Of a DNA stretch of 64,000 bases, positions 39,803 to 61,154 are shown piece after piece; position 1 is the stretch's first letter; each line of letters begins with the position of its first letter. Location of the stretch: IMG/VR virus record IMGVR_UViG_3300032782_000004, one strand, 5' to 3'. A program made the position numbers and the translations under genes. The notes under the pieces are model-generated. The model searched no databases. It saw nothing but the letters and a program-made list of their open reading frames with translations, and was not told where the DNA came from. The stretch is from a virus (taxonomy: Duplodnaviria > Heunggongvirae > Uroviricota > Caudoviricetes).

Positions 39803-40344
39803 CTGATGATCGTCATCCGTCACGGCGTCTTCTACGAGAAAAGCCCCACCGACGTCTTCGCCTCCGAGGGGGTTTGACGATCGCCATCCGTCACAGCGTC
39901 TCCCGCGAGTCGTGAATTCGGCGAGATGGGCGGCGTCAAACGTGGTCTGACGATCGCCATCCGTCACAGCGTCTCCCGCGAGCGCGGGAACGCCGCCGTA
40001 TTCGGCCCCGCACAGGATCTGACGATCGCCATCCGTCACAGCGTCTCCCGCGAGCACGCAAGCGAAAACGAAAACGACGATGATCGACACTGACGATCGC
40101 CATCCGTCACAGCGTCTCCCGCGAGGTTGCGAATCTCCATTGAGATTGTTGGAGATGGAGCTACTGACGATCGCCATCCGTCACAGCGTCTCCCGCGAGT
40201 CGGGGGGCTTGCGGCGCGAGGAGGACCCGTCCTTCGCTGACGATCGCCATCCGTCACAGCGTCTCCCGCGAGCGCGGGAACGCCGCCGTATTCGGCCCCG
40301 CACAGGATCTGACGATCGCCATCCGTCACAGCGTCTCCCGCGAG
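39803..40344. CRISPR. CRISPR array: eight 36-bp repeats (first degenerate) with seven 35-38-bp spacers. Further decayed repeat remnants at 39726-39761 and ~39611-39650.
   Basis: Repeat CTGACGATCGCCATCCGTCACAGCGTCTCCCGCGAG at 39874, 39947, 40019, 40090, 40164, 40237 and 40309; degenerate copy at 39803. Spacers at 39839-39873, 39910-39946, 39983-40018, 40055-40089, 40126-40163, 40200-40236 and 40273-40308. Repeat decay toward low coordinates implies the leader lies on the cas-gene side, so transcription is probably on the minus strand. Confidence 0.85.
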
Positions 40345-42203
40345 GCGTCGTGTAGAAAGCCGCTGACTTCGACCTCTTGCACGTCGCTTTGCGAGCGGTT
40401 CCCCTCATCGGCTAGGGAACGAGCCGTATCTCCACGGAATTGCGGGGAACCGTTCTTTGCGGCACCGAGCCGCTCGATCTCTGAGACAGGCGTCGTGATG
40501 GATGAAGATCGGCCACGCTGAACGTGGCGCTCCGGGGGATCCCCGGTTGCCGGACCGATACGGGGCCGTGAGGGAGAGTTGCCTCGCCCTCCGTGCCGTC
40601 CGTTTGTCACGGCCGTTGTCCCCCTTTCGGGGGGTTTCGAACCCGCGCTCCGCGGGCCCGCTTCGCCGGTATCGCTACCGGAAGAGTATTGTAAAAGGTT
40701 TGCCGCGGCGTTGTCGTCACGGTCGTCGATGTGCTCGCAAGAAGGGCACTGGAAATTCGGATATCCAGGCGAAGTCTCGCGCACGGTTAGGCACAACGCG
40801 CAGCGCTTTGTTACCGGCTCGTCTTGAGGCGCTTCCTCGAGACGGCCGCCGATCCATTTCATCTTATAAGCCACACGACGGCGAACATCGCCCATACGCG
40901 CGGCGTGGACCATCGGCGCCAAGCGATTGCGCGTTTGGGCGTCGTTCGTGAGGTTGCGCGAGAGCATAGAATGCACCGAACCGGCTGGGCGCATGCGTAC
41001 GATTTCGACGCCGGTGTCGACAATCTGCCGAACGCTCTTGCCTACGATGTCGTCTCGAAGATCGGTGATCCGCGCGTGATAGTGCGCAACGCGCCGCTTG
41101 GCTTCGAAAAAACCGGCGCTCTGGGCACGCGTCGCAATGCCCGCTCGATAGCGTCGCGCCATCCGACGCTCCCACAGCTTTCGGAGACGCTCGAACCGCG
41201 CGATGCGATCGTCGTCGCGGAGGCCAAGATGGCGGATGTTCGTCGAGCGTTCGCCTTGCGTCGCGACGGATAGGTTCACGACGCCGACCTCGACTCCAGC
41301 CACTCGGCCTTTCACGCGCGGTACCGGACGATCTCGCAGAGCGCGACCGGGCCCTCGTGCTTGCGGCGTCGGATCGGGTACTTCCGCTCGTAGCGCGATG
41401 TACCAGCGGCCGTCTCTCTCTGAGAGACCGAGAGCGATCGCTTTGCCGCCGTAGGGAAAGTGATGCGATTTCTCTTGCGTGACGGGCAAGTAATCACGCT
41501 CTTTCAAGACAACTTCGCCGATCCCCGGGATCGTCACGGTCCGTGACGTGATGCGGATCGGGTTCGGCTGGTCAACGTGGTAAGCCGCGTGTCGCCGGCC
41601 GCGAAAACGGGGGCGTCCCGCGCGCTCGTACCGCCCGGCTTTGATATGTTCGAAGAAATGCTTCCAGCCGTCCTCGACGTCGATAACGGCTTCGCGAATC
41701 GCGAACGAGGAGAGCTCGGTGAGCCAGCCGAACCGCTCCGGCTGTTCGTCGCGTACGAAGGCGACCTGGGAATACCAGTCGATCGACGTGGCGGCAAAAT
41801 CCGGGATCGCAGCGCCGGATGCGGGCCGGTAACGCACACGCTTTTGCGGCGTCCAGGCGACCGACGCGTGTTGACCAAAAAGCGCCAAAAGCCCGACGAC
41901 GACGGCGGCGCCGAGAGTCACCTGCGGCGCATCCTGCTCGATACGAGGCGTACGGACGTCGACCGGCGCGCCACGAGTGAGCGCAGCCAAAGCGTAGCCG
42001 AGCATGCACGCCGCTTCGCCGCCGGCGCAGTCATGTCCGGCGAGAGCGCGCGCGCCGCGCGCAATGCCGCGAGCGGCGTCGAGCTCGATCCAACGCTCGA
42101 GTACCCAGTTGTGCGCGACGCGAGCGCCAGCGACGTGTTTCGCGAGCGCACGCCGCTGTTCAGCGGTCGGATCAATCTCGGTCTTGTACGCGCGAAGGAT
42201 CAT
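40326..42203 (-). CDS. TnpB/Cas12-like RuvC-domain RNA-guided effector (compact type V CRISPR effector candidate)
   Basis: N-terminus MILRAYKTEIDPTAEQRRALAKHVAGARVAHNWVLERW is typical of OrfB_IS605/TnpB. RuvC-I-like GVEVGVVNLSVAT (Glu in place of Asp), RuvC-II-like TGVEIVRM, zinc finger CALC...CPSC, RuvC-III DDRDDNAAANL. ~130-aa low-complexity C-terminal tail. The ORF terminates inside the leader-proximal CRISPR repeat. Confidence 0.7.
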   Translation of the reverse strand: MILRAYKTEIDPTAEQRRALAKHVAGARVAHNWVLERWIELDAARGIARGARALAGHDCAGGEAACMLGYALAALTRGAPVDVRTPRIEQDAPQVTLGAAVVVGLLALFGQHASVAWTPQKRVRYRPASGAAIPDFAATSIDWYSQVAFVRDEQPERFGWLTELSSFAIREAVIDVEDGWKHFFEHIKAGRYERAGRPRFRGRRHAAYHVDQPNPIRITSRTVTIPGIGEVVLKERDYLPVTQEKSHHFPYGGKAIALGLSERDGRWYIALRAEVPDPTPQARGPGRALRDRPVPRVKGRVAGVEVGVVNLSVATQGERSTNIRHLGLRDDDRIARFERLRKLWERRMARRYRAGIATRAQSAGFFEAKRRVAHYHARITDLRDDIVGKSVRQIVDTGVEIVRMRPAGSVHSMLSRNLTNDAQTRNRLAPMVHAARMGDVRRRVAYKMKWIGGRLEEAPQDEPVTKRCALCLTVRETSPGYPNFQCPSCEHIDDRDDNAAANLLQYSSGSDTGEAGPRSAGSKPPERGTTAVTNGRHGGRGNSPSRPRIGPATGDPPERHVQRGRSSSITTPVSEIERLGAAKNGSPQFRGDTARSLADEGNRSQSDVQEVEVSGFLHDASRETL

Positions 42204-48898: not shown

Positions 48899-50131
48899 GT
48901 GGCCAAAACAGCGCCCTGGGACTCACATCTTCTAAAAAACAAGCAGGGCGCTTACCTGCCGTGCCTCAACAATGCGGTCGCGATCCTGACGCATCGAAGC
49001 GAATGGCACAACGTGATCGCCTACGACGCGTTCGCCGGCGTCGTGATCAAGAAAAAGCGCCCGCCGTGGTGCGAGGATACGGCGCCGGAGGACGACTCGC
49101 TCGGCGACTGGTCGAAGGAGGACTCGCTGCGCACCGTCGTCTGGATCACGCGCGAGTACAATTGCCCGGTTCAGACGTACATCGTGGACGAGGCCGTCCA
49201 GGTCGTTGCCGCGCGCTGGCAGACGCATCCGGTGCGTGACTGGCTCAACGCGCAGAAGTGGGATCGCAAGTCGCGGCTCGACTCGTTGTTCATTCGACTC
49301 GGCGGCGCGCCCGACACTATCTACACGAAAGCGGTCACGAAGAATTTCTTTCTCGGTGCGGTCGCGCGGATCATGCGGCCAGGCGAGCAAGTCGATTCGG
49401 TGCTCGTGCTCGAGGGCAAGCAAGGTGCCGGCAAGAGTTCTTTCTTTCGAATCGTCGCGTCGGAGCCGTGGTTCCTCGAAACGTCGATCAACATCGGCAG
49501 CAAAGACGGTTACCAAGCGTTGCGACGAAAATGGATCGTCGAGTTCGCCGAGCTGAGCGCACTTCGACGATCGGATTTCTGGTTGATCAACCAGTTCATC
49601 ACGGCGGTCAAAGACACGTACCGCCCCTCATACGGGCGCTCACCGATCGATTTTCCGCGGCAGGTTGTCTACGGCGGAAGCGTCAATCCGGACGGTGCCG
49701 GCTACTTGAACGATCCGACCGGCGCCCGCCGATTCTGGCCGATACCGGTCAAGAAAATCGATCTCAAAGCGCTTCGCGCTGAGAGGACGCAGCTCTGGGC
49801 CGAGGCCGTGTACCGCTATCGCAAGTGCGAAAAGTGGCACTTGCAGGACGCGAAGCTGCTGCGCGCCGCCGCGGAGGAGGCCGAAGAACGACGGCAAATG
49901 GATCCGTGGGAAACGCACGTTCAAGAATTTCTCGGCCGCGTGAAAAACAAAAAGCTTTACGCGAAGGACGGCGTACGCATCGAAGATCTGCTCGACGACG
50001 CCGTTCAAATGCCTCGCGATCGACAGGAGCATTCGCATCGGATTCGGATGGGACGCGTGCTCCACGTCATCGGCTGGGGGCGCGTCGTGCGAGGTTCCGA
50101 CGGGGCTCGGCGCTACCTTCCAGACGAATAG
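48899..50131 (+). CDS. VirE/P4-type primase C-terminal domain protein (P-loop NTPase)
   Basis: Walker A GKQGAGKSSF, Walker B VLVLE. N-terminal PriCT-like region. Confidence 0.65.
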   Translation: MAKTAPWDSHLLKNKQGAYLPCLNNAVAILTHRSEWHNVIAYDAFAGVVIKKKRPPWCEDTAPEDDSLGDWSKEDSLRTVVWITREYNCPVQTYIVDEAVQVVAARWQTHPVRDWLNAQKWDRKSRLDSLFIRLGGAPDTIYTKAVTKNFFLGAVARIMRPGEQVDSVLVLEGKQGAGKSSFFRIVASEPWFLETSINIGSKDGYQALRRKWIVEFAELSALRRSDFWLINQFITAVKDTYRPSYGRSPIDFPRQVVYGGSVNPDGAGYLNDPTGARRFWPIPVKKIDLKALRAERTQLWAEAVYRYRKCEKWHLQDAKLLRAAAEEAEERRQMDPWETHVQEFLGRVKNKKLYAKDGVRIEDLLDDAVQMPRDRQEHSHRIRMGRVLHVIGWGRVVRGSDGARRYLPDE

Positions 50132-53856: not shown

Positions 53857-54239
53857 TGGCCCGCATGAGCGACGATGAGATTTCAGAACTCGCCGAGGCG
53901 CTGGAAAACGCGTGTCGTGCGTTCGAACGAATGGGCGGGTGCATCACGAGCGCGCACATGACCTTTGGCCGGTGCCCAATTGGAGCGCTGCTCAGACGAA
54001 TCGGTGACCCGCATCCGTCCGGGGATGTAGCGGCGAAGCTCCTCAAGATCGATCCAGGCGCCGCGTGGTCGTTCATGGCCGGGTTCGATGGCCGTAATGA
54101 ACCCGATTCCGATCGCCGCCTCTTCCAGCTCGGTCGACTCTTCCGCGAGCAGTACGATCCCGATCGCCACCAGCCATCGAAGCAGCACGCCCGCACAGCG
54201 GCGAAGCGGAAAGCGAAAGGTGGAGGTGCCCCGGCATGA
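53857..54239 (+). CDS. hypothetical protein
   Basis: Internal start MARMSDDEISELAEALENACRAF. Confidence 0.3.
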
Positions 54240-55396
54240 ACCTTCAACCTTCAGCCTCTCGCACGGCGTTGCTTCTCGCATGCCCTCGCCCGTTCGACCC
54301 CGAACTCGACGTCGAGCTCGAAGAACCGGGCGAGCCAGCGCGTTACGGCAGCGCCTTCCACCAAGTGATCGCAGCGTGCCTTCGAGGATCAGCCAAAAAA
54401 CCGCTCGAGAAATCGATCGCTGCATATACACGCGAGATCAACCGGGCTACGAAGAAGTTCGACGTCGTCGCCGCCGCGCAAGAACTCGCCGGACACGTCA
54501 AAAGCAGTGTGCAAGTGCTTCGAAAATGGCTCGCACGCGAAAATCTAATCGTGCAGCAAGTCGAAACAGCACGCGCAGTGCACGCGACCGCGATAGGGGA
54601 TTGGACGAGGCGAACGATTTCGCCGCACGACGAGGACCATCGTTACGACGTTGTATCGGACGAAGTCCCAGGCACGATCGATCTAGTCGCCGCGAATTCC
54701 AAGCGGATCGTCGTCCTCGACCACAAGACAGGCGGCATCGACGAGAACTTCGCTCGTCCGAGCTTGATCCCTCAAATGCGTACGCTCGGATTGGTCGAAT
54801 TGGGTGCACGATCAGCCGTCATCGAGGTCGCTATTTTTCACGCTGACAGGCGCGGCTTGCCGATCGTCTACTCTGAAGAGTACGAACCTGTCGAACAGCA
54901 CAAACACGCCGCTGCGCTCGCCAAAGCTGTCTCGCGCATCGGTCAGGGATTTCTTCGGCCCGGCCCCTATTGTAGACGGTGCCCGGCACGCACCACTTGT
55001 CCGGCGCATGCGGCTGATCTCCTCGCCGAAAGCTCGGCGGCGCTCGTCCAATCGGCCAGTGCGCTCGCCGTAGAGCCGATCCAAGGGCCGTTGGCTCCGG
55101 CGACGGGCGCGAGCATCGAGCAGCGAGCCGGAGCGCTCTACGACCTTCTCAAGAAGTTTCGCGCGCTCGAGAAGGCAGGCTCAGAAGAAATCAAGCGCCT
55201 CGTCCGTGAAGGCGCTGTCATCGAAACGCGAACGGGCGAAGTGCTCGCCCTTCGAAAACAGAGCTACGAGACGCTTTCGAAAAAGAGCGTCATCGAAGCG
55301 CTCGGGAAAGTCGCCGGGGAGAGGGAGCTCGAGAAGCTTCGGAAAAAGGGCGCCCTGCGAGAAACGACACGAGAAATGCTCGTCCCGGAGAAGTGA
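54236..55396 (+). CDS. PD-(D/E)xK nuclease, Cas4/RecB-exonuclease-like, with C-terminal Cys cluster
   Basis: Motif II-III IDLVAANSKRIVVLDHKTGG. C-terminal CRRCPARTTCP plus N-terminal Cys form a Fe-S-type cluster. GGAGG RBS. Sits in the replication module, not adjacent to the CRISPR array. Confidence 0.6.
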   Translation: MNLQPSASRTALLLACPRPFDPELDVELEEPGEPARYGSAFHQVIAACLRGSAKKPLEKSIAAYTREINRATKKFDVVAAAQELAGHVKSSVQVLRKWLARENLIVQQVETARAVHATAIGDWTRRTISPHDEDHRYDVVSDEVPGTIDLVAANSKRIVVLDHKTGGIDENFARPSLIPQMRTLGLVELGARSAVIEVAIFHADRRGLPIVYSEEYEPVEQHKHAAALAKAVSRIGQGFLRPGPYCRRCPARTTCPAHAADLLAESSAALVQSASALAVEPIQGPLAPATGASIEQRAGALYDLLKKFRALEKAGSEEIKRLVREGAVIETRTGEVLALRKQSYETLSKKSVIEALGKVAGERELEKLRKKGALRETTREMLVPEK

Positions 55397-57224: not shown

Positions 57225-57698
57225 ATGGTAGAAGAAAACTTGGAAGAACGGGTTAATCACCCCAAATGGTATACCAGCCATTCGAGTGGCATCGAGTGTA
57301 TCGATCTCATCGAGCACTTGCCGTGCAATCTCGCCAACGCCGTGAAGTACATTTGGCGTTGCGGCTTGAAGATGTCAGAAACACCGCTCCGCGAGTTGAA
57401 GTCGGCAAAGTGGTACGTCGAACGCGAGGATCGACGATGGGCGCTCTACGGAATCGAATCGCCTTCATCTGAACTGGACGTTGTTTGGCGTGCTGTCGCC
57501 AGGCGCGTCATTCTCGCCGACGGCGCTGACCAAACGACGCTAGCTTCGTTTCTCGACGCACTCCTCGACTACGATTTCACCGGAATGGCCGAAGTGCTCG
57601 ATGAGTCCATCCGCGAAGCCGAAGCGGCGCTAGCGATGCACGAAGCTGCGGTAACGATGGCTGTCCGCGAAGCCGAGGCTGCGAAAGAGTCCAAATGA
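57225..57698 (+). CDS. DUF3310 family phage protein
   Basis: NHPKWYTSHSSGIECIDLIEHLPCNLANAVKYIWR matches the DUF3310 N-terminal signature (NHP.HY...IE.ID). GAGGA RBS. Confidence 0.55.
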   Translation: MVEENLEERVNHPKWYTSHSSGIECIDLIEHLPCNLANAVKYIWRCGLKMSETPLRELKSAKWYVEREDRRWALYGIESPSSELDVVWRAVARRVILADGADQTTLASFLDALLDYDFTGMAEVLDESIREAEAALAMHEAAVTMAVREAEAAKESK

Positions 57699-58195
57699 AA
57701 CTGGTCTACGTCGCGGGCCCTTTTTCCGGCCCTACGCGCAACGTTGTCGAGGCGAACATCCGGCGTGCGGTCGAGGTCGGGTTGGAGGTCGCGAAAGCGG
57801 GCTTCATGCCCGTAGTGCCGCACGCGAACACGGCAGATCCGGAGTACGAAAAAGTTCAGCCTTACGAGTTCTGGATCGAAGGTACAACGGCGCTCCTGCT
57901 TCTATGCGACGCGATGGTCGTCGTCCCGGATGCGACAGTGGTGTTAATTTCAATTCGGCGTTTCCAACAATCGGGGCGAGGCATGCACGAACTGCTAGCC
58001 AGCGCAGATAGGTGCGGTGTCGTCGAGACGTGGTGCGAACCTACTTACGATACTCGGGTAGCTTTAATGGGACGGTACTCCAGGTCGGCCGATTCGAGCG
58101 GCGTCAAGAGAGAACGTGAACAGGCTGCACGCCGCGGGATCCCCGTCTTCGAAACACTCGAAGCGCTACGAGCGTGGGGCGATGCGAACAATTGA
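57695..58195 (+). CDS. DUF4406/nucleoside 2-deoxyribosyltransferase-like protein
   Basis: MKLVYVAGPFSGPT...AKAGFMPVVPH matches DUF4406 (MK.VYIAGP..G). Confidence 0.5.
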   Translation: MKLVYVAGPFSGPTRNVVEANIRRAVEVGLEVAKAGFMPVVPHANTADPEYEKVQPYEFWIEGTTALLLLCDAMVVVPDATVVLISIRRFQQSGRGMHELLASADRCGVVETWCEPTYDTRVALMGRYSRSADSSGVKREREQAARRGIPVFETLEALRAWGDANN

Positions 58196-58391
58196 ACGCA
58201 TCTTGCGGAACGTCGCGCGCTGCCGTGCGTGCGGCGACGTTGTTGAAAGCACGCATCGGCGCCATTTCGTCAAATGCCGATGCGGCGAGCTGTTCGTCGA
58301 CGGGGGTACTGACTACTTGCGTCGCGGGTGGGGCGCGGCGGGATTCGACGAACTCAGCGAGTTCGAAACTCAACTCGAAAAGCCTGGTTGA
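58182..58391 (+). CDS. small zinc-ribbon protein
   Basis: MRTIERILRNVARCRACGDVVESTHRRHFVKCRCGELF. Confidence 0.3.
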   Translation: MRTIERILRNVARCRACGDVVESTHRRHFVKCRCGELFVDGGTDYLRRGWGAAGFDELSEFETQLEKPG

Positions 58392-58502
58392 AGTGATCCG
58401 CCGGACATCTGCCGCCCACTTGAGCCTTCTTTGACAGAAGGTTTCACGGTTGCTATCTTTCAACCAGAGCGCCGGGTTCATTCCCCGACCCACGTTCTCG
58501 GC

Positions 58503-58539
58503 CGCACCCCTTTTCGACGGGGGGTGCGGCTTTTTTCTT
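58503..58539 (+). terminator. rho-independent terminator
   Basis: GCCGCACCCC-ttttcgac-GGGGTGCGGC followed by TTTTTTC. Confidence 0.6.
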
Positions 58540-58637
58540 GCGATCGATCAGGCGTTTCGCTAGAACCGTCAACCTGAGCCCAACGTCGAAGCGACGCCAC
58601 TCGAAGGCGGCGGCGGGCAAAGAGAACCGGGAAAAAC

Positions 58638-60533
58638 ATGCCGCAGGATGCGTCCGCGCTGGAGCGCGAGCCGTACGATCGCGTGTTGGTATTAGGCCAG
58701 CCGCATCACGGCAAAATGTTGCCGAATTCCGAACCTGTGCTTACGCCTACAGGTTGGAAACCGATGGGCCGCCTGATCGTCGGCGAATACGTGATTGGAT
58801 CTAACGGGTACCCGACAAAAGTCGTTGCCGTGTACCCGCACGACCACAAGCCGATCGTCAGGCTGACAATGGATTGTGGTGCGACAGCGCGTTGTGGCCT
58901 CGAGCATCTCTGGTTCACGACTACTCGCCACGAATTGCGACGCGGTAGTCGACGGTACCCTCCAGGCACGCCACATCACATGCGCGGTACGGTAAAGCAA
59001 GAGTTTGTGGGTTGGGGTGAAGGAAGCGTCAAGACAACCCAAGAGCTGATCGAGACGCTCGACGCACGTCACTATATACCGCGAGTCGCACCTATCATGT
59101 ATGCGGACGTGGAGCTCCCGCTCGATCCATATTTGCTCGGGCTCGTTTTAGGTGACGGCTCGATAACAGGTAGCGGGCAGATTACACTCACGAAACCGGA
59201 CGAAGACATACTCGACGCCTTCGAACGTGAGGTCAGAGCTGTAGGCGACACGCCTGTACGCTATGATAACACCAAGTGCAACTACGTTCGTGTGAACGGC
59301 ACGAATCTAAAGAAGTGTTTGAATGCGCTCAACTTGTACGGAGCACGTTCGTCGACGAAATTCATACCGGAAATATTCTTGCGAGCGCCGCCTAAAGCGC
59401 GCCTCGCGCTGTTGCGTGGTCTCTGTGATACCGATGGGCATGCTGTCAAGAACATCTGTAGCGTTGGTCACGCGCACGACGGTTTGAGCCTAACGGCTGA
59501 GTTCTCGACGACATCGGAGCGACTTTGCGATGGCGTTATCGAATTAGCGCGTTCGCTCGGCAGCCGTGCGAGGGCGCGCTACAAACCGGAGCCGTACTCT
59601 CAAAGCGGCCCCGGACAACCGGCTTGGTGCGTGGACATCTCTTTTGAAGACGGCACATGTCCATTTTCTCTCCCGCGAAAAGCAAATCTGTGGGTTGGCG
59701 GTGATCGTGAAAAGCTCTACCGCCAACGGCTCGAGAAGATCGAGCCGGCAGGCGAAGAGGAATGCACGTGTATTACAGTCGAAGCTGAAGACGGGTTGTT
59801 CGTAACTAACAACTACATCTTGACACACAATTCGACAAGTGTGGTCGCTAGTGCTGCCAAAGCATTCGGTATGGGCTACGTGATCAACTGCGGGAAAAAA
59901 ACGGGGCTCCTCGAGGCCGCTCGTCGATGCGACCGCTTCAAATGGGATCTCGTTCGCGACGAGGTTCAAATGGAGGACGCGCTCAAAGAAGCGCGTCGAG
60001 GCTCCAAAGACGGCGTTTACAAATGGGTCGCCATCGACGATTACAACCTCTACGCGAGCTGGCTTGAGGTCGCGCTCGAAGATCAAACGCGCAACGCCAA
60101 AGGCGAAGCCGACGGGCGCCGCTTTTGGCGCGAGTACCGAAAGCGGCTCGTAAACATCCTCGTTCGATGCTTCGACATCAAAGCGCATTTCTATTGCATC
60201 TCACATTACATCGAGACGGGCGGCGGCCTCATCGACGGCCAGACCGAGAAGGTTGGCGTCGACGTCGCGCCGCTTTTCGGCGGCGCCGCGCGCAAGGAAA
60301 TCCCCGGCATGTTCGCCGATATCGTGTTTATGGCGCCAAGCTCGAAGAGCCAAAAAGAGCGCAGCTTTTACATCAACCCGATCGGCGTCTACGGCCCGAG
60401 CTGTCTGAGCTTGCCTGAAACGCGCGAGATCGACGCCGACGTCGGCGCGCTCCACGACGCTTTCATGAAAGCCGGCAAATCCGGCAAGTCAGAGAATCAA
60501 AACACCGGCAAGCCCGGCTATCACAGGAAGTGA
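58638..60533 (+). CDS. AAA_24 (Sak4-like) RecA-fold ATPase interrupted in its P-loop by an intein carrying a LAGLIDADG homing endonuclease
   Basis: N-extein ...RVLVLGQPHHGK and C-extein STSVVASAAKAFGMGYVINCGKKTG...YKWVAIDDYNLY splice to a canonical Walker A GQPHHGKST plus a hhhhDD Walker B. Followed by a DUF669-like gene, as in Sak4 modules. Confidence 0.6.
   Translation: MPQDASALEREPYDRVLVLGQPHHGKMLPNSEPVLTPTGWKPMGRLIVGEYVIGSNGYPTKVVAVYPHDHKPIVRLTMDCGATARCGLEHLWFTTTRHELRRGSRRYPPGTPHHMRGTVKQEFVGWGEGSVKTTQELIETLDARHYIPRVAPIMYADVELPLDPYLLGLVLGDGSITGSGQITLTKPDEDILDAFEREVRAVGDTPVRYDNTKCNYVRVNGTNLKKCLNALNLYGARSSTKFIPEIFLRAPPKARLALLRGLCDTDGHAVKNICSVGHAHDGLSLTAEFSTTSERLCDGVIELARSLGSRARARYKPEPYSQSGPGQPAWCVDISFEDGTCPFSLPRKANLWVGGDREKLYRQRLEKIEPAGEEECTCITVEAEDGLFVTNNYILTHNSTSVVASAAKAFGMGYVINCGKKTGLLEAARRCDRFKWDLVRDEVQMEDALKEARRGSKDGVYKWVAIDDYNLYASWLEVALEDQTRNAKGEADGRRFWREYRKRLVNILVRCFDIKAHFYCISHYIETGGGLIDGQTEKVGVDVAPLFGGAARKEIPGMFADIVFMAPSSKSQKERSFYINPIGVYGPSCLSLPETREIDADVGALHDAFMKAGKSGKSENQNTGKPGYHRK
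58716..59831 (+). other. intein (372 aa) with LAGLIDADG endonuclease; class-3-like features
   Basis: Block A-like MLPNSEPVLTPTGW. Block B ...CGLEHLW (Trp at B12). LAGLIDADG motifs LLGLVLGDGSI and LALLRGLCDTDGH. Block F ECTCITV (Cys at F4). Block G ILTHN followed by +1 Ser. Position 1 is Met. Confidence 0.55.
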
Positions 60534-60539
60534 AGAGAG

Positions 60540-61154
60540 ATGGCAAGCAATTCGACGCAGTCCCAAAAGAAGATGGAATACAAGCCCGTCGTTTTCGACG
60601 TCAACGAGATCGCCCCCGACGCTCCGGCGGGCGAGTGGAAAATGTCGATCCCTCGCGGCAAATGCAAGGTGCAGCCGACAAAGGAAGATCACTACCCGAT
60701 GCTCATCGTCCCGATCCGACTCGATGGCACGGACGAAGAAGACGAGACGCATCAGAAGGCGCTCGGGACCGAGCTCTCGGTGTTCGTCACGTTCTTCGGA
60801 GACGAGAAGGCGCGCGCCGCACGCATGAGCAAGCTTCGTTTGCGTCAAATGTGCGAGCTCCTCGACATCGATCTCGATATTCTCCCGAAGGAGCTCAACG
60901 ACCCCGAGAACGATCTCGAGCCGCTCATCCGCGCACTCGAAGGGAAAAAGTTCACCGGGTGGACTCGCGTCACGACTCGACGGGATACCGGCGAGGAGGT
61001 CACCGAGGTCGTGTTCTCCGATCCAAACCGCCGGATCGGCGGCGGAGGCAGTGACGAAGACGACGAGGACGAAGAGGAAGACGACGACGAGAAGCCGGCA
61101 GCGCGAGCAGCGAAGAAGGCCCCGGCAAAGAAGGCGAACGGCAAGCGCCGTTGA
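60540..61154 (+). CDS. DUF669-like (phage SSB-like) protein with acidic then basic C-terminal tail
   Basis: VFDVNEIAPDAPAGEWKMSIPRGK...MLIVPIRLDG resembles the DUF669 core. DEDDEDEEEDDDE acidic tail. Position directly after the AAA_24 gene. Confidence 0.4.
   Translation: MASNSTQSQKKMEYKPVVFDVNEIAPDAPAGEWKMSIPRGKCKVQPTKEDHYPMLIVPIRLDGTDEEDETHQKALGTELSVFVTFFGDEKARAARMSKLRLRQMCELLDIDLDILPKELNDPENDLEPLIRALEGKKFTGWTRVTTRRDTGEEVTEVVFSDPNRRIGGGGSDEDDEDEEEDDDEKPAARAAKKAPAKKANGKRR

Follow-up and report, generated by a model that had tools for sequence, protein, structure and literature searches.

Organization of the locus

In the window (the whole 64,000-nucleotide stretch of phage DNA that was analyzed), an open reading frame encodes a 631-aa protein in which the Walker A motif is interrupted by an in-frame insert of 372 aa (Table 1). 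In the annotation of the source metagenome, the gene is assigned only to a “hypothetical protein.” A protein identical to that of the window (P0108) is encoded on 6 metagenome contigs from at least two samples. The reading frame runs unbroken through both insert junctions, and removal of the insert (58716-59831) yields GQPHHGK|STSVV, where the vertical bar marks the insertion site.

Table 1. Features annotated in the interrupted ATPase gene, with positions in the window; assignments are predictions.
Feature	Position	Strand	Remarks
Precursor ORF (N-extein, intein and C-extein)	58638..60533	+	631 aa plus stop
N-extein, 26 aa	58638..58715	+	Ends in first part of Walker A (GQPHHGK, 58695-58715); alignment A1 against intein-free homologues
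Intein, 372 aa	58716..59831	+	Met27 to Asn398 of the ORF; absent from all 15 aligned homologues
Splicing block A, MLPNSEPVLTPTGW	58716..58757	+	Met (not Cys, Ser or Thr) at intein residue 1; relatives have an xxPxxEPVLTPxGW motif directly after GK
Splicing block B, GATARCGLEHLWFT	58878..58919	+	His90 (B10); Trp92 (B12, W of WCT)
LAGLIDADG motif 1 (block C), LDPYLLGLVLGDGSI	59121..59165	+	Reads LLGLVLGDGS, with acidic residue of GDG; Pfam LAGLIDADG_3 in two stretches; conserved columns in alignment A2
Endonuclease block D region, KFIPEIF	59358..59378	+	Nearly invariant Lys; in A2, K222 and P225 are nearly invariant or invariant
LAGLIDADG motif 2 (block E), LALLRGLCDTDGHA	59403..59444	+	Reads LLRGLCDTDGH; LAGLIDADG_3 and Hom_end, best stretch residues 252-324; D245, D247 and G248 nearly invariant
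Splicing block F, EECTCITVEAEDGLFVT	59757..59807	+	Cys378 (F4, C of WCT), proposed initiating nucleophile (role from PMC2807308)
Splicing block G, NNYILTHN	59808..59831	+	Thr396 (G5, T of WCT), His397, Asn398
C-extein, 233 aa plus stop	59832..60533	+	Starts at Ser399 (+1); completes Walker A as GK|ST
Walker B-like motif, WVAIDD	60021-60047	+	Within C-extein

We used the extein sequence, spliced in silico, as a query for homologues; every protein retrieved in this way was intein-free, the identical 631-aa protein escaped detection, and intein-bearing alleles were found with the intein as query. The intein-free homologues (n = 107) share 40-87% aa identity with the extein, nearly all are 241-277 aa long, and none could accommodate the insert. 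We aligned 15 of the 107, and all 15 have an uninterrupted G-x-P-H-x-G-K-S/T-T. At the DNA level, the empty site in L004 reads GGAAAA|AGTACT, and the window reads GGCAAA|[1116 bp]|TCGACA. When spliced in silico at the intein-free site, the window sequence becomes CATCACGGCAAA|TCGACAAGTGTG. A sequence-only reading of this DNA had proposed that excision at these positions restores the Walker A motif GQPHHGK|ST; the comparison with intein-free AAA_24 homologues that it suggested bears this out, as it maps the insertion site between K and S/T and finds no conserved non-intein domain there in any of the 15 aligned sequences. Because the aligned homologues read GxPHxGK|ST straight through and none of the more than 100 found has the insert, the junction is unambiguous, and it cannot slide because the flanking residues differ (K|M vs N|S).

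The same alignment bears on the class of the intein. Class 1 inteins carry Cys, Ser or Thr at residue 1, a position occupied here by Met. A class 1 intein would require a shifted N-terminal junction, at which the Ser of MLPNSEPV, or some other Ser, Thr or Cys residue, would be the nucleophile and MLPN would stay in the mature ATPase. This Ser lies just four residues downstream of the proposed junction, and a few members of the intein family do carry Ser or Cys at position 1. However, nothing intervenes between GK and ST in intein-free homologues, whereas retention of MLPN would leave four residues inside the Walker A motif; furthermore, the conserved register of block A in relatives puts residue 1 directly after GK, and the column of that Ser is unconserved in relatives (D, S, N or G). 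We consider a class 1 junction very unlikely, and the dismissal of the NSEPV Ser in the sequence-only reading is upheld, since homologues have no MLPN residues.

Identity of the host ATPase

The spliced extein scored 24.1 bits against PF13479 (AAA_24), for which the Pfam cut-off is 27. All 15 of the intein-free homologues matched PF13479, with E values up to 0.01 (best, 2.7e-15), and a match to PHROG 124, “Sak4-like ssDNA annealing protein,” was detected at 1.2e-6; the proposal of a Sak4-like AAA_24 host is supported on both counts. No PDB sequence match was found for the spliced extein at E ≤ 10. The extein retains the Walker A and Walker B-like motifs and every invariant residue of the family. 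Based on these similarities, the host is predicted to be an AAA_24 (Sak4-like) recombination ATPase with a RecA fold. Its gene sits in a replication and recombination module, with genes for a PDDEXK exonuclease (54236-55396) and a helicase-primase (48899-50131) nearby in the window and a DNA polymerase A gene downstream in L002. Because Pfam sees neither AAA_24 nor a splicing domain in the unspliced product, it is the recognition of the intein that recovers the probable function of this gene, that of a Sak4-like recombination ATPase within the replication module.

Splicing blocks and the class 3 signature

Class 3 inteins are defined by a non-nucleophilic residue 1, a WCT triplet and Ser or Thr (Cys in rare cases) at +1 (PMC2807308); for this definition and the associated mechanism we relied on PMC2807308, PMC3196547 and PMC5050341. 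The sequence-only reading had assigned the triplet to the Trp of GLEHLW, the Cys of ECTC and the Thr at G5, with THN followed by a +1 Ser. Each residue is located as it claimed: His90 and Trp92 lie within GLEHLW, Cys378 within ECTCITV and Thr396 within THN, and Ser399 follows. All are nearly invariant in relatives. His occupies B10 in 238/238 aligned family domains, Trp occupies B12 in 227/235, Cys is at F4 in 227/236 and Thr is at G5 in 230/235; the C-terminal His and Asn occur in 229/235 and 234/235, respectively, and 228/235 have Thr or Ser at +1. Overall, conservation of WCT, His B10, His-Asn and Thr/Ser +1 is about 97% or more of the 235-238 aligned domains. An additional Cys is present at block B position 6.

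Residue 1 is variable. In the spectrum computed from 257 family domains, the residues observed include A (134), P (17), Q (11), S (10), E (10), M (9), G (9) and L (6). Met was found in 9 of 215 aligned domains (about 4%, with Ala at 62%), at P-loop and non-P-loop sites alike, and in close AAA_24 relatives residue 1 is Ala, Leu or Ser. We considered whether Met1, or the ATG that encodes it, is a special feature and rejected this; residue 1 is free to vary in the family, so its identity here is unremarkable, and no ribosome-binding site is visible upstream.

Taken from its sequence, the insert falls within the published definition of a class 3 intein, with the caveat that a WCT triplet alone is no proof of splicing competence, because WCT grafted onto a class 1 intein was not enough for splicing (PMC7664689). 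The class 3 assignment with Met at position 1, as first proposed, agrees with the presence of all signatures and with homology to the Alice helicase intein (see below); its mechanism is read from sequence. Class 2 (KlbA-type) inteins also do without a nucleophile at residue 1, and by that mechanism the +1 Ser would attack the N-terminal junction directly with no block F intermediate. However, class 2 inteins lack WCT, have standard blocks B and F, carry Asp at F4 and Cys at +1, and are known in KlbA only (PMC2807308, PMC3196547), whereas in the window intein WCT is complete, the +1 residue is Ser and the sequence is homologous to class 3 inteins, which makes a class 2 mechanism highly improbable.

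We searched both the whole protein and the intein with the Pfam intein splicing-domain models (Intein_splicing, Hint) and found no match at E ≤ 1; the assignment of the splicing domain therefore rests on the family alignment, the PDB matches and the predicted fold. At the same threshold, the only Pfam matches to either query were to endonuclease families. The insert begins with ATG, and LAGLIDADG enzymes are known in introns and as free-standing genes, so that the insert might be read as a free-standing or intron-encoded LAGLIDADG gene, in frame by chance and perhaps translated from the ATG at 58716. Against this, the frame is continuous over both junctions, and splicing blocks A, B, F and G, which match solved inteins, are formed by the ~100 residues before and the ~45 residues after the endonuclease; moreover, most relatives have Ala rather than Met at this position, and we saw by eye no Shine-Dalgarno-like sequence directly upstream of the ATG. 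Such a non-intein origin is extremely improbable.

Predicted structure and related inteins

AlphaFold (AF2) modeled the intein with a pLDDT of 89.8 and a pTM of 0.89. In a Foldseek search of this predicted model against the PDB, the best match was PI-SceI (1ef0; E 2.2e-21, TM 0.71), and the next matches were VMA inteins, PI-PfuI, I-DmoI and the class 3 MchDnaB1 intein (6riy); matches to PI-SceI and the VMA inteins span E values of 1e-16 to 2e-21. The model thus has a PI-SceI-type two-domain fold, in which an intein splicing domain (HINT) is combined with a LAGLIDADG endonuclease. By sequence, the PDB matches were 6riz (gp41-1 with an engineered WCT; 1e-8), followed at 1e-5 to 6e-5 by 6rix and 6riy (MchDnaB1) and 6bs8 (Msm DnaBi1), both of which are class 3. 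The empty site defined by intein-free homologues, the predicted fold and the matches to solved class 3 inteins together corroborate the original identification of the insert as an intein.

The intein family comprises 15,647 database clusters, and its best-matching members are mostly inserted after the GK of a P-loop. An HMM built from relatives matches the window intein at E 7.6e-144, a profile that includes the window protein itself; a search of the window with this family HMM found no second intein. Relatives occupy the GK|S/T site in PhoH, helicases, terminases and AAA_24 proteins, and this site is a common insertion point among bacterial, archaeal and phage ATPases (PMC5050341). Within this very large and well-described family, the window intein is an ordinary member. 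Class 3 inteins are reported to be monophyletic.

The nearest characterized relative is the intein of Alice gp175, a DNA helicase of a cluster C1 mycobacteriophage, which aligned over its whole length with 38% identity (E 1e-69). The Alice intein is of the same type as MP-Catera gp206 in InBase, and it is listed as class 3 (bioRxiv 10.1101/2025.01.02.630785). Like the window intein, it lies between a P-loop GK and a Ser (GSGK|A...THN|S), it has the block A motif xEPVSEPVLTPTGW together with HLW, vCITVEA and LTHN, and it carries a nested LAGLIDADG endonuclease within a similar length (359 aa in Alice vs 372 aa in the window). The two differ in host protein (a 980-aa SF2-type helicase in Alice vs a 259-aa AAA_24 ATPase), in residue 1 (Ala in Alice vs Met) and in source, as Alice is an actinobacteriophage whereas the window belongs to an uncultivated phage from a soil metagenome.

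The mycobacteriophage Bethlehem DnaB intein, the prototype of class 3 (PMC2807308), shares with the window intein a non-nucleophilic residue 1, WCT, Ser/Thr at +1, a LAGLIDADG endonuclease, a phage origin and an ATPase/helicase-type host. It resides in another extein at another insertion site; its mechanism has been shown biochemically, whereas we infer that of the window intein from sequence. The matches to MchDnaB1 (6rix, 6riy) and Msm DnaBi1 (6bs8) noted above cover the N-terminal splicing region of the window intein. These mycobacterial DnaB-1 mini-inteins share the class 3 catalytic Cys, His, Thr and Trp (PMC7664689); however, they are ~140 aa long, lack an endonuclease and interrupt a cellular replicative helicase. 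PI-SceI (the Sce VMA1 intein; 1ef0, 1vde, 1lws), although the best structural match with the same combination of splicing domain and LAGLIDADG endonuclease, is a class 1 intein (Cys1, Asp at F4, Cys at +1) with a eukaryotic host and only 15-17% identity. A mycobacteriophage TerL1-a intein occupies the same Walker A position, between the invariant Lys and Thr (PMC5050341), in another extein family.

Nested endonuclease

Both LAGLIDADG motifs of the insert retain a conserved acidic residue. Pfam matches on the insert to LAGLIDADG_3 (E 1.4e-8) and Hom_end (E 3.9e-5) were both above the cut-offs, in agreement with the nested endonuclease with two LAGLIDADG motifs that had been proposed. The predicted fold likewise matches I-DmoI and the endonuclease domain of PI-SceI. 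The released intein or its precursor is probably a site-specific endonuclease, with indirect support from the patchy distribution of the intein and the dN/dS of the endonuclease domain (see below).

Composition, selection and mobility

The intein has a GC content of 0.552, compared with a mean of 0.618 across the window, and ranks in the lowest 0.24% of 1116-bp windows; its GC3 is 0.60, compared with 0.74-0.77 in the exteins. The earlier statement that the gene region is lower in GC than its neighbors holds for the intein, whereas the C-extein is just mildly low (0.586). Relative to P0109, dN/dS was 0.078 over the intein as a whole, 0.094 in its N-terminal splicing region, 0.095 in its endonuclease domain and 0.12 in the extein, values that are approximate because dS was saturated in this sole pairwise comparison; they point to purifying selection on both the splicing and the endonuclease domains. 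We also compared intein-bearing with intein-free host genes. The spliced extein of P0112 and intein-free P0041 share 97.3% identity, and the spliced extein of P0121 shares 99.1% with intein-free P0078; at 86.8%, intein-free P0004 is nearer to the window extein than is any intein-bearing allele (83.1%). The low GC, the purifying selection and the presence of the intein in only some of a set of nearly identical host genes speak for an element that is active in homing.

These data also bear on whether the intein might be a decayed, non-splicing remnant, so that the ATPase would be permanently inactive or would accommodate the insert as an extra domain, with the gene dispensable or complemented by other recombination genes. 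Inactive class-3-like inteins do exist, for example Arsp-FB24 Arth_1007 (PMC3196547); an Arthrobacter relative of the Catera gp206 intein is an inactive pseudogene, although one in which the Cys has been lost (WDT) (PMC3196547). In the window, however, the catalytic positions are all intact, dN/dS is about 0.08-0.1 across both intein domains and 0.12 for the extein, neither the Walker A and Walker B-like motifs nor the invariant family residues of the extein have been lost, and the identical allele turned up in independent samples. A remnant is unlikely.

Proposed splicing and homing pathway

Very probably, then, a 372-aa class 3 intein with a nested LAGLIDADG endonuclease interrupts the Walker A motif of a putative AAA_24 (Sak4-like) ATPase between its invariant Lys and Ser. 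Following the published class 3 mechanism, the F4 residue Cys378, with His90 and Trp92 of block B activating it, would after translation attack the Lys26-Met27 bond to form a block F thioester branched intermediate. Transfer of the N-extein onto the Ser399 (+1) side chain would then produce the usual branched intermediate at block G, and cyclization of Asn398 would free the intein; an O-to-N acyl shift would restore GQPHHGKSTSVV and with it ATP binding by a functional 259-aa ATPase. Met would be tolerated because residue 1 is not a nucleophile in the class 3 mechanism. For homing, the endonuclease would cut intein-free alleles encoding the P-loop in co-infecting related phages, and repair off the intein-bearing copy after the cut would spread the element.

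With this assignment, AAA_24 ATPases would be a further group of P-loop proteins that class 3 inteins have entered; in the literature that we searched, we found no intein in a Sak4 or AAA_24 host. The pairs with and without the intein, whose exteins are 97-99% identical, could be used to study homing and moves between nucleotide-binding-site hosts, and protein engineering would gain another natural class 3 intein, one with a bulky residue 1 and a THN C-terminal motif. Current understanding is unchanged, as publications from 2009-2011 onward have already described class 3 inteins as elements of phage origin that favor P-loops.

The intein might in addition act as a conditional switch on the Sak4-like ATPase, with a reversible Cys disulfide keeping the ATPase unspliced under oxidizing conditions; we give this only a slim chance. 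If it were so, this would also be the first intein host described in the Sak4/AAA_24 family. A redox switch has been documented in the class 3 intein Msm DnaBi1 (PMC6195587), and the window intein has a C-x-C pair (Cys376, Cys378) that occurs in every AAA_24-hosted relative examined and is missing in nearly all other relatives.

An intein in the P-loop of a Sak4-like ATPase

In an alignment (A1) of the window protein with 15 intein-free homologues, the motif G-x-P-H/K-x-G-K-S/T-T is uninterrupted in all 15 homologues, and the window protein has 372 additional residues precisely between the P-loop Lys and Ser. The window ORF product reads MPQDASALEREPYDRVLVLGQPHHGK^MLPNSEPVLTPTGW ... NNYILTHN^STSVVASAAK... 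(^ marks a junction); because the two junctions have different flanking residues (K^M and N^S), the insert boundaries are fixed and cannot slide. Using the in-silico spliced sequence as a query, we identified 107 homologues (40–87% identity), none with the insert; nearly all are 241–277 aa long, and PF13479 (AAA_24) is precomputed for most. The empty-site DNA in L004, a related 89-kb contig, is ...CACTACGGAAAA^AGTACTTCT..., and the occupied site in the window is ...CATCACGGCAAA^(1116 nt)^TCGACAAGT.... The sequence-only reading had placed an insertion in the P-loop and proposed mapping it against intein-free AAA_24 homologues; the empty sites fix the same junctions, between Lys and Ser of GK^ST. 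That reading had argued against a junction at the Ser of NSEPV, which the intein-free homologues and the differing junction residues rule out.

The spliced extein scored 24.1 bits against AAA_24, just under the Pfam cut-off of 27; however, all of 15 intein-free homologues hit PF13479 (E as low as 2.7e-15), and there is a match to PHROG 124, “Sak4-like ssDNA annealing protein” (1.2e-6), which favours the proposed Sak4-like AAA_24 host. The extein contains a Walker B-like WVAIDD and every family-invariant residue. In a 50,697-record collection of cultured phages, no close extein homologue was found, and all matches were intein-driven; the source phage is uncultivated (JGI metagenome 3300032954, SRA run SRR8881745; contigs 68–92 kb). 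Database protein P0107 (199 aa) has only a 47-aa stretch (KWVAIDDYNLYASWLEVALEDQTRNAKGEADGRRF) in common with the extein, the rest being low-complexity; a frameshift in the gene as called on a related contig probably explains it.

In the central part of the insert, Pfam identified LAGLIDADG_3 (E 1.4e-8) and Hom_end (3.9e-5), both above cut-offs and in support of the two LAGLIDADG motifs read from the sequence; no Pfam splicing-domain model matched the insert. Based on phmmer analysis against PDB, solved inteins match the N-terminal ~70 residues and, weakly, the C-terminal ~40; matches include 6riz (gp41-1 with engineered WCT, 1e-8) and the class 3 inteins MchDnaB1 (6rix, 6riy) and Msm DnaBi1 (6bs8). 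AlphaFold2, supplied with the intein, short extein flanks and a 35-sequence alignment, gave a confident model (mean pLDDT 89.8, pTM 0.89), for which the top Foldseek match in PDB was the two-domain intein endonuclease PI-SceI (1ef0; E 2.2e-21, TM 0.71), with other VMA inteins and PI-PfuI also among the top matches and I-DmoI and MchDnaB1 matching separate domains. From the Pfam endonuclease matches, the PDB intein matches and the predicted PI-SceI-like fold, the insert is a full-length intein, its splicing domain interrupted by a LAGLIDADG endonuclease. The alignment and motifs contradict a free-standing or intron-encoded endonuclease, a class 1 intein with another junction, and a class 2 mechanism.

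Pfam-A misses both the intein splicing domain and AAA_24 in the unspliced product, and automated annotation of the window gene gives “hypothetical protein” or “LAGLIDADG” only. This blind spot may extend to class 3 P-loop inteins generally.

Class 3 assignment and proposed splicing

Class 3 inteins are defined by a residue 1 other than Ser, Thr or Cys, the WCT triplet, and Ser or Thr at +1, and most occur in ATPase P-loops of phage and helicase-like proteins (PMC2807308, PMC3196547, PMC5050341). The window intein has all of these features: Met27 (position 1), His90 (B10), Trp92 (B12), Cys378 (F4), Thr396 (G5), His397 and Asn398, followed by Ser399 (+1). The WCT signature, THN end and +1 Ser of the sequence-only reading are therefore all present and match the published definition. 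Among 257 intein domains taken from the best family hits, the aligned domains conserve B10 His (238/238), B12 Trp (227/235), F4 Cys (227/236), G5 Thr (230/235) and the C-terminal Asn (234/235); the +1 residue is Thr in 175, Ser in 53 and Cys in 6. Residue 1 varies freely (Ala 134, Pro 17, Gln 11, Ser 10, Glu 10, Met 9, Gly 9, Leu 6, Cys 4, Phe 3, Asp 2), and in the closest AAA_24-hosted relatives it is Met, Leu, Ala or Ser. Met at position 1 thus fits class 3 chemistry, as suggested, but is not unusual; it also occurs in P0258, after GLGK, and at a non-P-loop site, DK^MQPVSEPVLTP, in several large proteins. Six of these (P0160, P0161, P0202, P0208, P0230, P0285; 1300–1600 aa) carry a closely related Met1 sub-group at xDK^MQPVSEPVLTP.

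Following the chemistry in the class 3 literature, whose residues are present here, Cys378, helped by His90 and Trp92, would attack the Lys26–Met27 bond to form a block F thioester branch; the N-extein would pass to Ser399, Asn398 cyclisation would free the intein, and an O-to-N shift would restore GQPHHGKSTSVV. The Walker A loop is split before splicing, so the unspliced ATPase should be inactive. A Cys376-x-Cys378 pair is found in all AAA_24-hosted relatives examined; conditional splicing through it, redox-gated for example, is an improbable though conceivable refinement.

Relatives and mobility

Among characterised inteins, the closest is that in the gp175 helicase of mycobacteriophage Alice (38% identity, E 1e-69), which is 359 aa long (GSGK^AEPVSEPVLTPTGW...YALTHN^S), compared with 372 aa here; exactly this Alice intein was classed as class 3 in a 2025 survey (bioRxiv 10.1101/2025.01.02.630785). 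A word-index search identified 41 intein relatives, ~17 of them AAA_24 proteins with an intein; the remaining hosts are PhoH, SF1/SF2 helicases, terminase and others, with most inteins immediately following a P-loop GK or GR. Among the 41 is P0108, identical to the 631-aa window protein and present on 6 contigs from at least 2 samples. Exhaustive HMMER analysis of 1.84 billion representatives identified 15,647 clusters at E ≤ 1e-3 and 2,666 at E ≤ 1e-30. P0150, P0166, P0180 and others (1400–1900 aa) match the window intein in as many as five separate stretches, and on that basis are multi-intein proteins or carriers of class 3 family intein fragments.

The intein belongs to a well-known kind and would not surprise a specialist; its main value lies in correct annotation and in natural allele pairs with and without the intein. 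Our full-text literature search found no paper pairing an intein with Sak4 or AAA_24, so inteins in this extein family may be previously unreported; more than 12 intein-bearing AAA_24 alleles are already in databases.

The low GC expected of an invasive element holds for the intein (0.552 vs 0.618 for the window; lowest 0.24% of equal-sized windows), and its GC3 is 0.60 vs 0.74–0.77 for the exteins. Comparison with a 75%-identical allele (P0109, locus L005) gave dN/dS values of 0.078 (intein), 0.094 (N-terminal splicing part), 0.095 (endonuclease domain) and 0.12 (exteins), all approximate because dS is saturated. The spliced exteins of P0112 and P0121 are 97.3% and 99.1% identical to intein-free P0041 and P0078, respectively, and the window extein is 86.8% identical to an intein-free allele vs ≤83.1% to other intein-bearing alleles. 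No second intein of this family was found in the window. Low GC, purifying selection and patchy distribution are sequence-level evidence that the intein is a living mobile element. A decaying intein that no longer splices is the sole rival with some weight, and a very unlikely one, as the catalytic residues are intact and selection is purifying. The LAGLIDADG domain retains the aspartates of both motifs and the conserved Lys of block D; it is most likely a cutter of the uninterrupted P-loop-coding DNA of related co-infecting phages, where repair would copy the intein in.

Genomic neighbourhood

Coordinates of features in the window
Feature	Coordinates	Strand	Basis or description
Collagen triple-helix repeat protein, 1194 aa	100-3684	-	Pfam Collagen E 2.4e-12
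TnpB-like gene, 625-aa ORF	40326-42203	-	HTH_OrfB_IS605 and Cas12f1-like TNB domains
Helicase-primase	48899-50131
PDDEXK exonuclease	54236-55396
166-aa protein	57695-58195	+	First ~79 residues match DUF1937, DUF7768, PHROG 355 (nucleoside 2-deoxyribosyltransferase)
Small Cys-rich gene	58182-58391	+	Called in related locus L003 as 69-aa DUF7695 protein
Strong intrinsic terminator hairpin	58500-58540		13-bp stem, 9 GC pairs, T-run
Precursor ORF, 631 aa	58638-60533	+	ORF translation of window
Insert, Met27-Asn398, 372 aa	58716-59831	+	Alignment A1
LAGLIDADG motif 1, LLGLVLGDGS	59121-59165	+	Sequence
LAGLIDADG motif 2, LLRGLCDTDGH	59403-59444	+	Sequence
204-aa protein	60540-61154	+	Long acidic tract (DEDDEDEEEDDDE), then basic tail

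The neighbours of the ATPase gene have phage replication and recombination functions, including the helicase-primase, the PDDEXK exonuclease, nucleotide-kinase-like and deoxyribosyltransferase-like genes and, further downstream in the related locus L002, UDG-DNA polymerase A. The C-terminal half of the 166-aa protein has no Pfam or PHROG match, so it may be an insertion or a divergent domain. The terminator hairpin lies just 5' of the ATPase gene and 3' of the Cys-rich gene, at whose position a 125-aa minus-strand ORF, probably a mis-call, is annotated on the JGI contig. The 204-aa protein has no Pfam or PHROG matches; a candidate counterpart of 200–204 aa immediately follows the ATPase gene in L002, L003 and L004, and the 204-aa protein is a candidate that could be a cognate SSB-like partner of the Sak4-type protein. 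Elsewhere in the window, the collagen-repeat protein is probably a tail fibre, and the 625-aa ORF is, from its predicted domains, a TnpB-like (IS605/IS607-family) nuclease gene within the phage genome.
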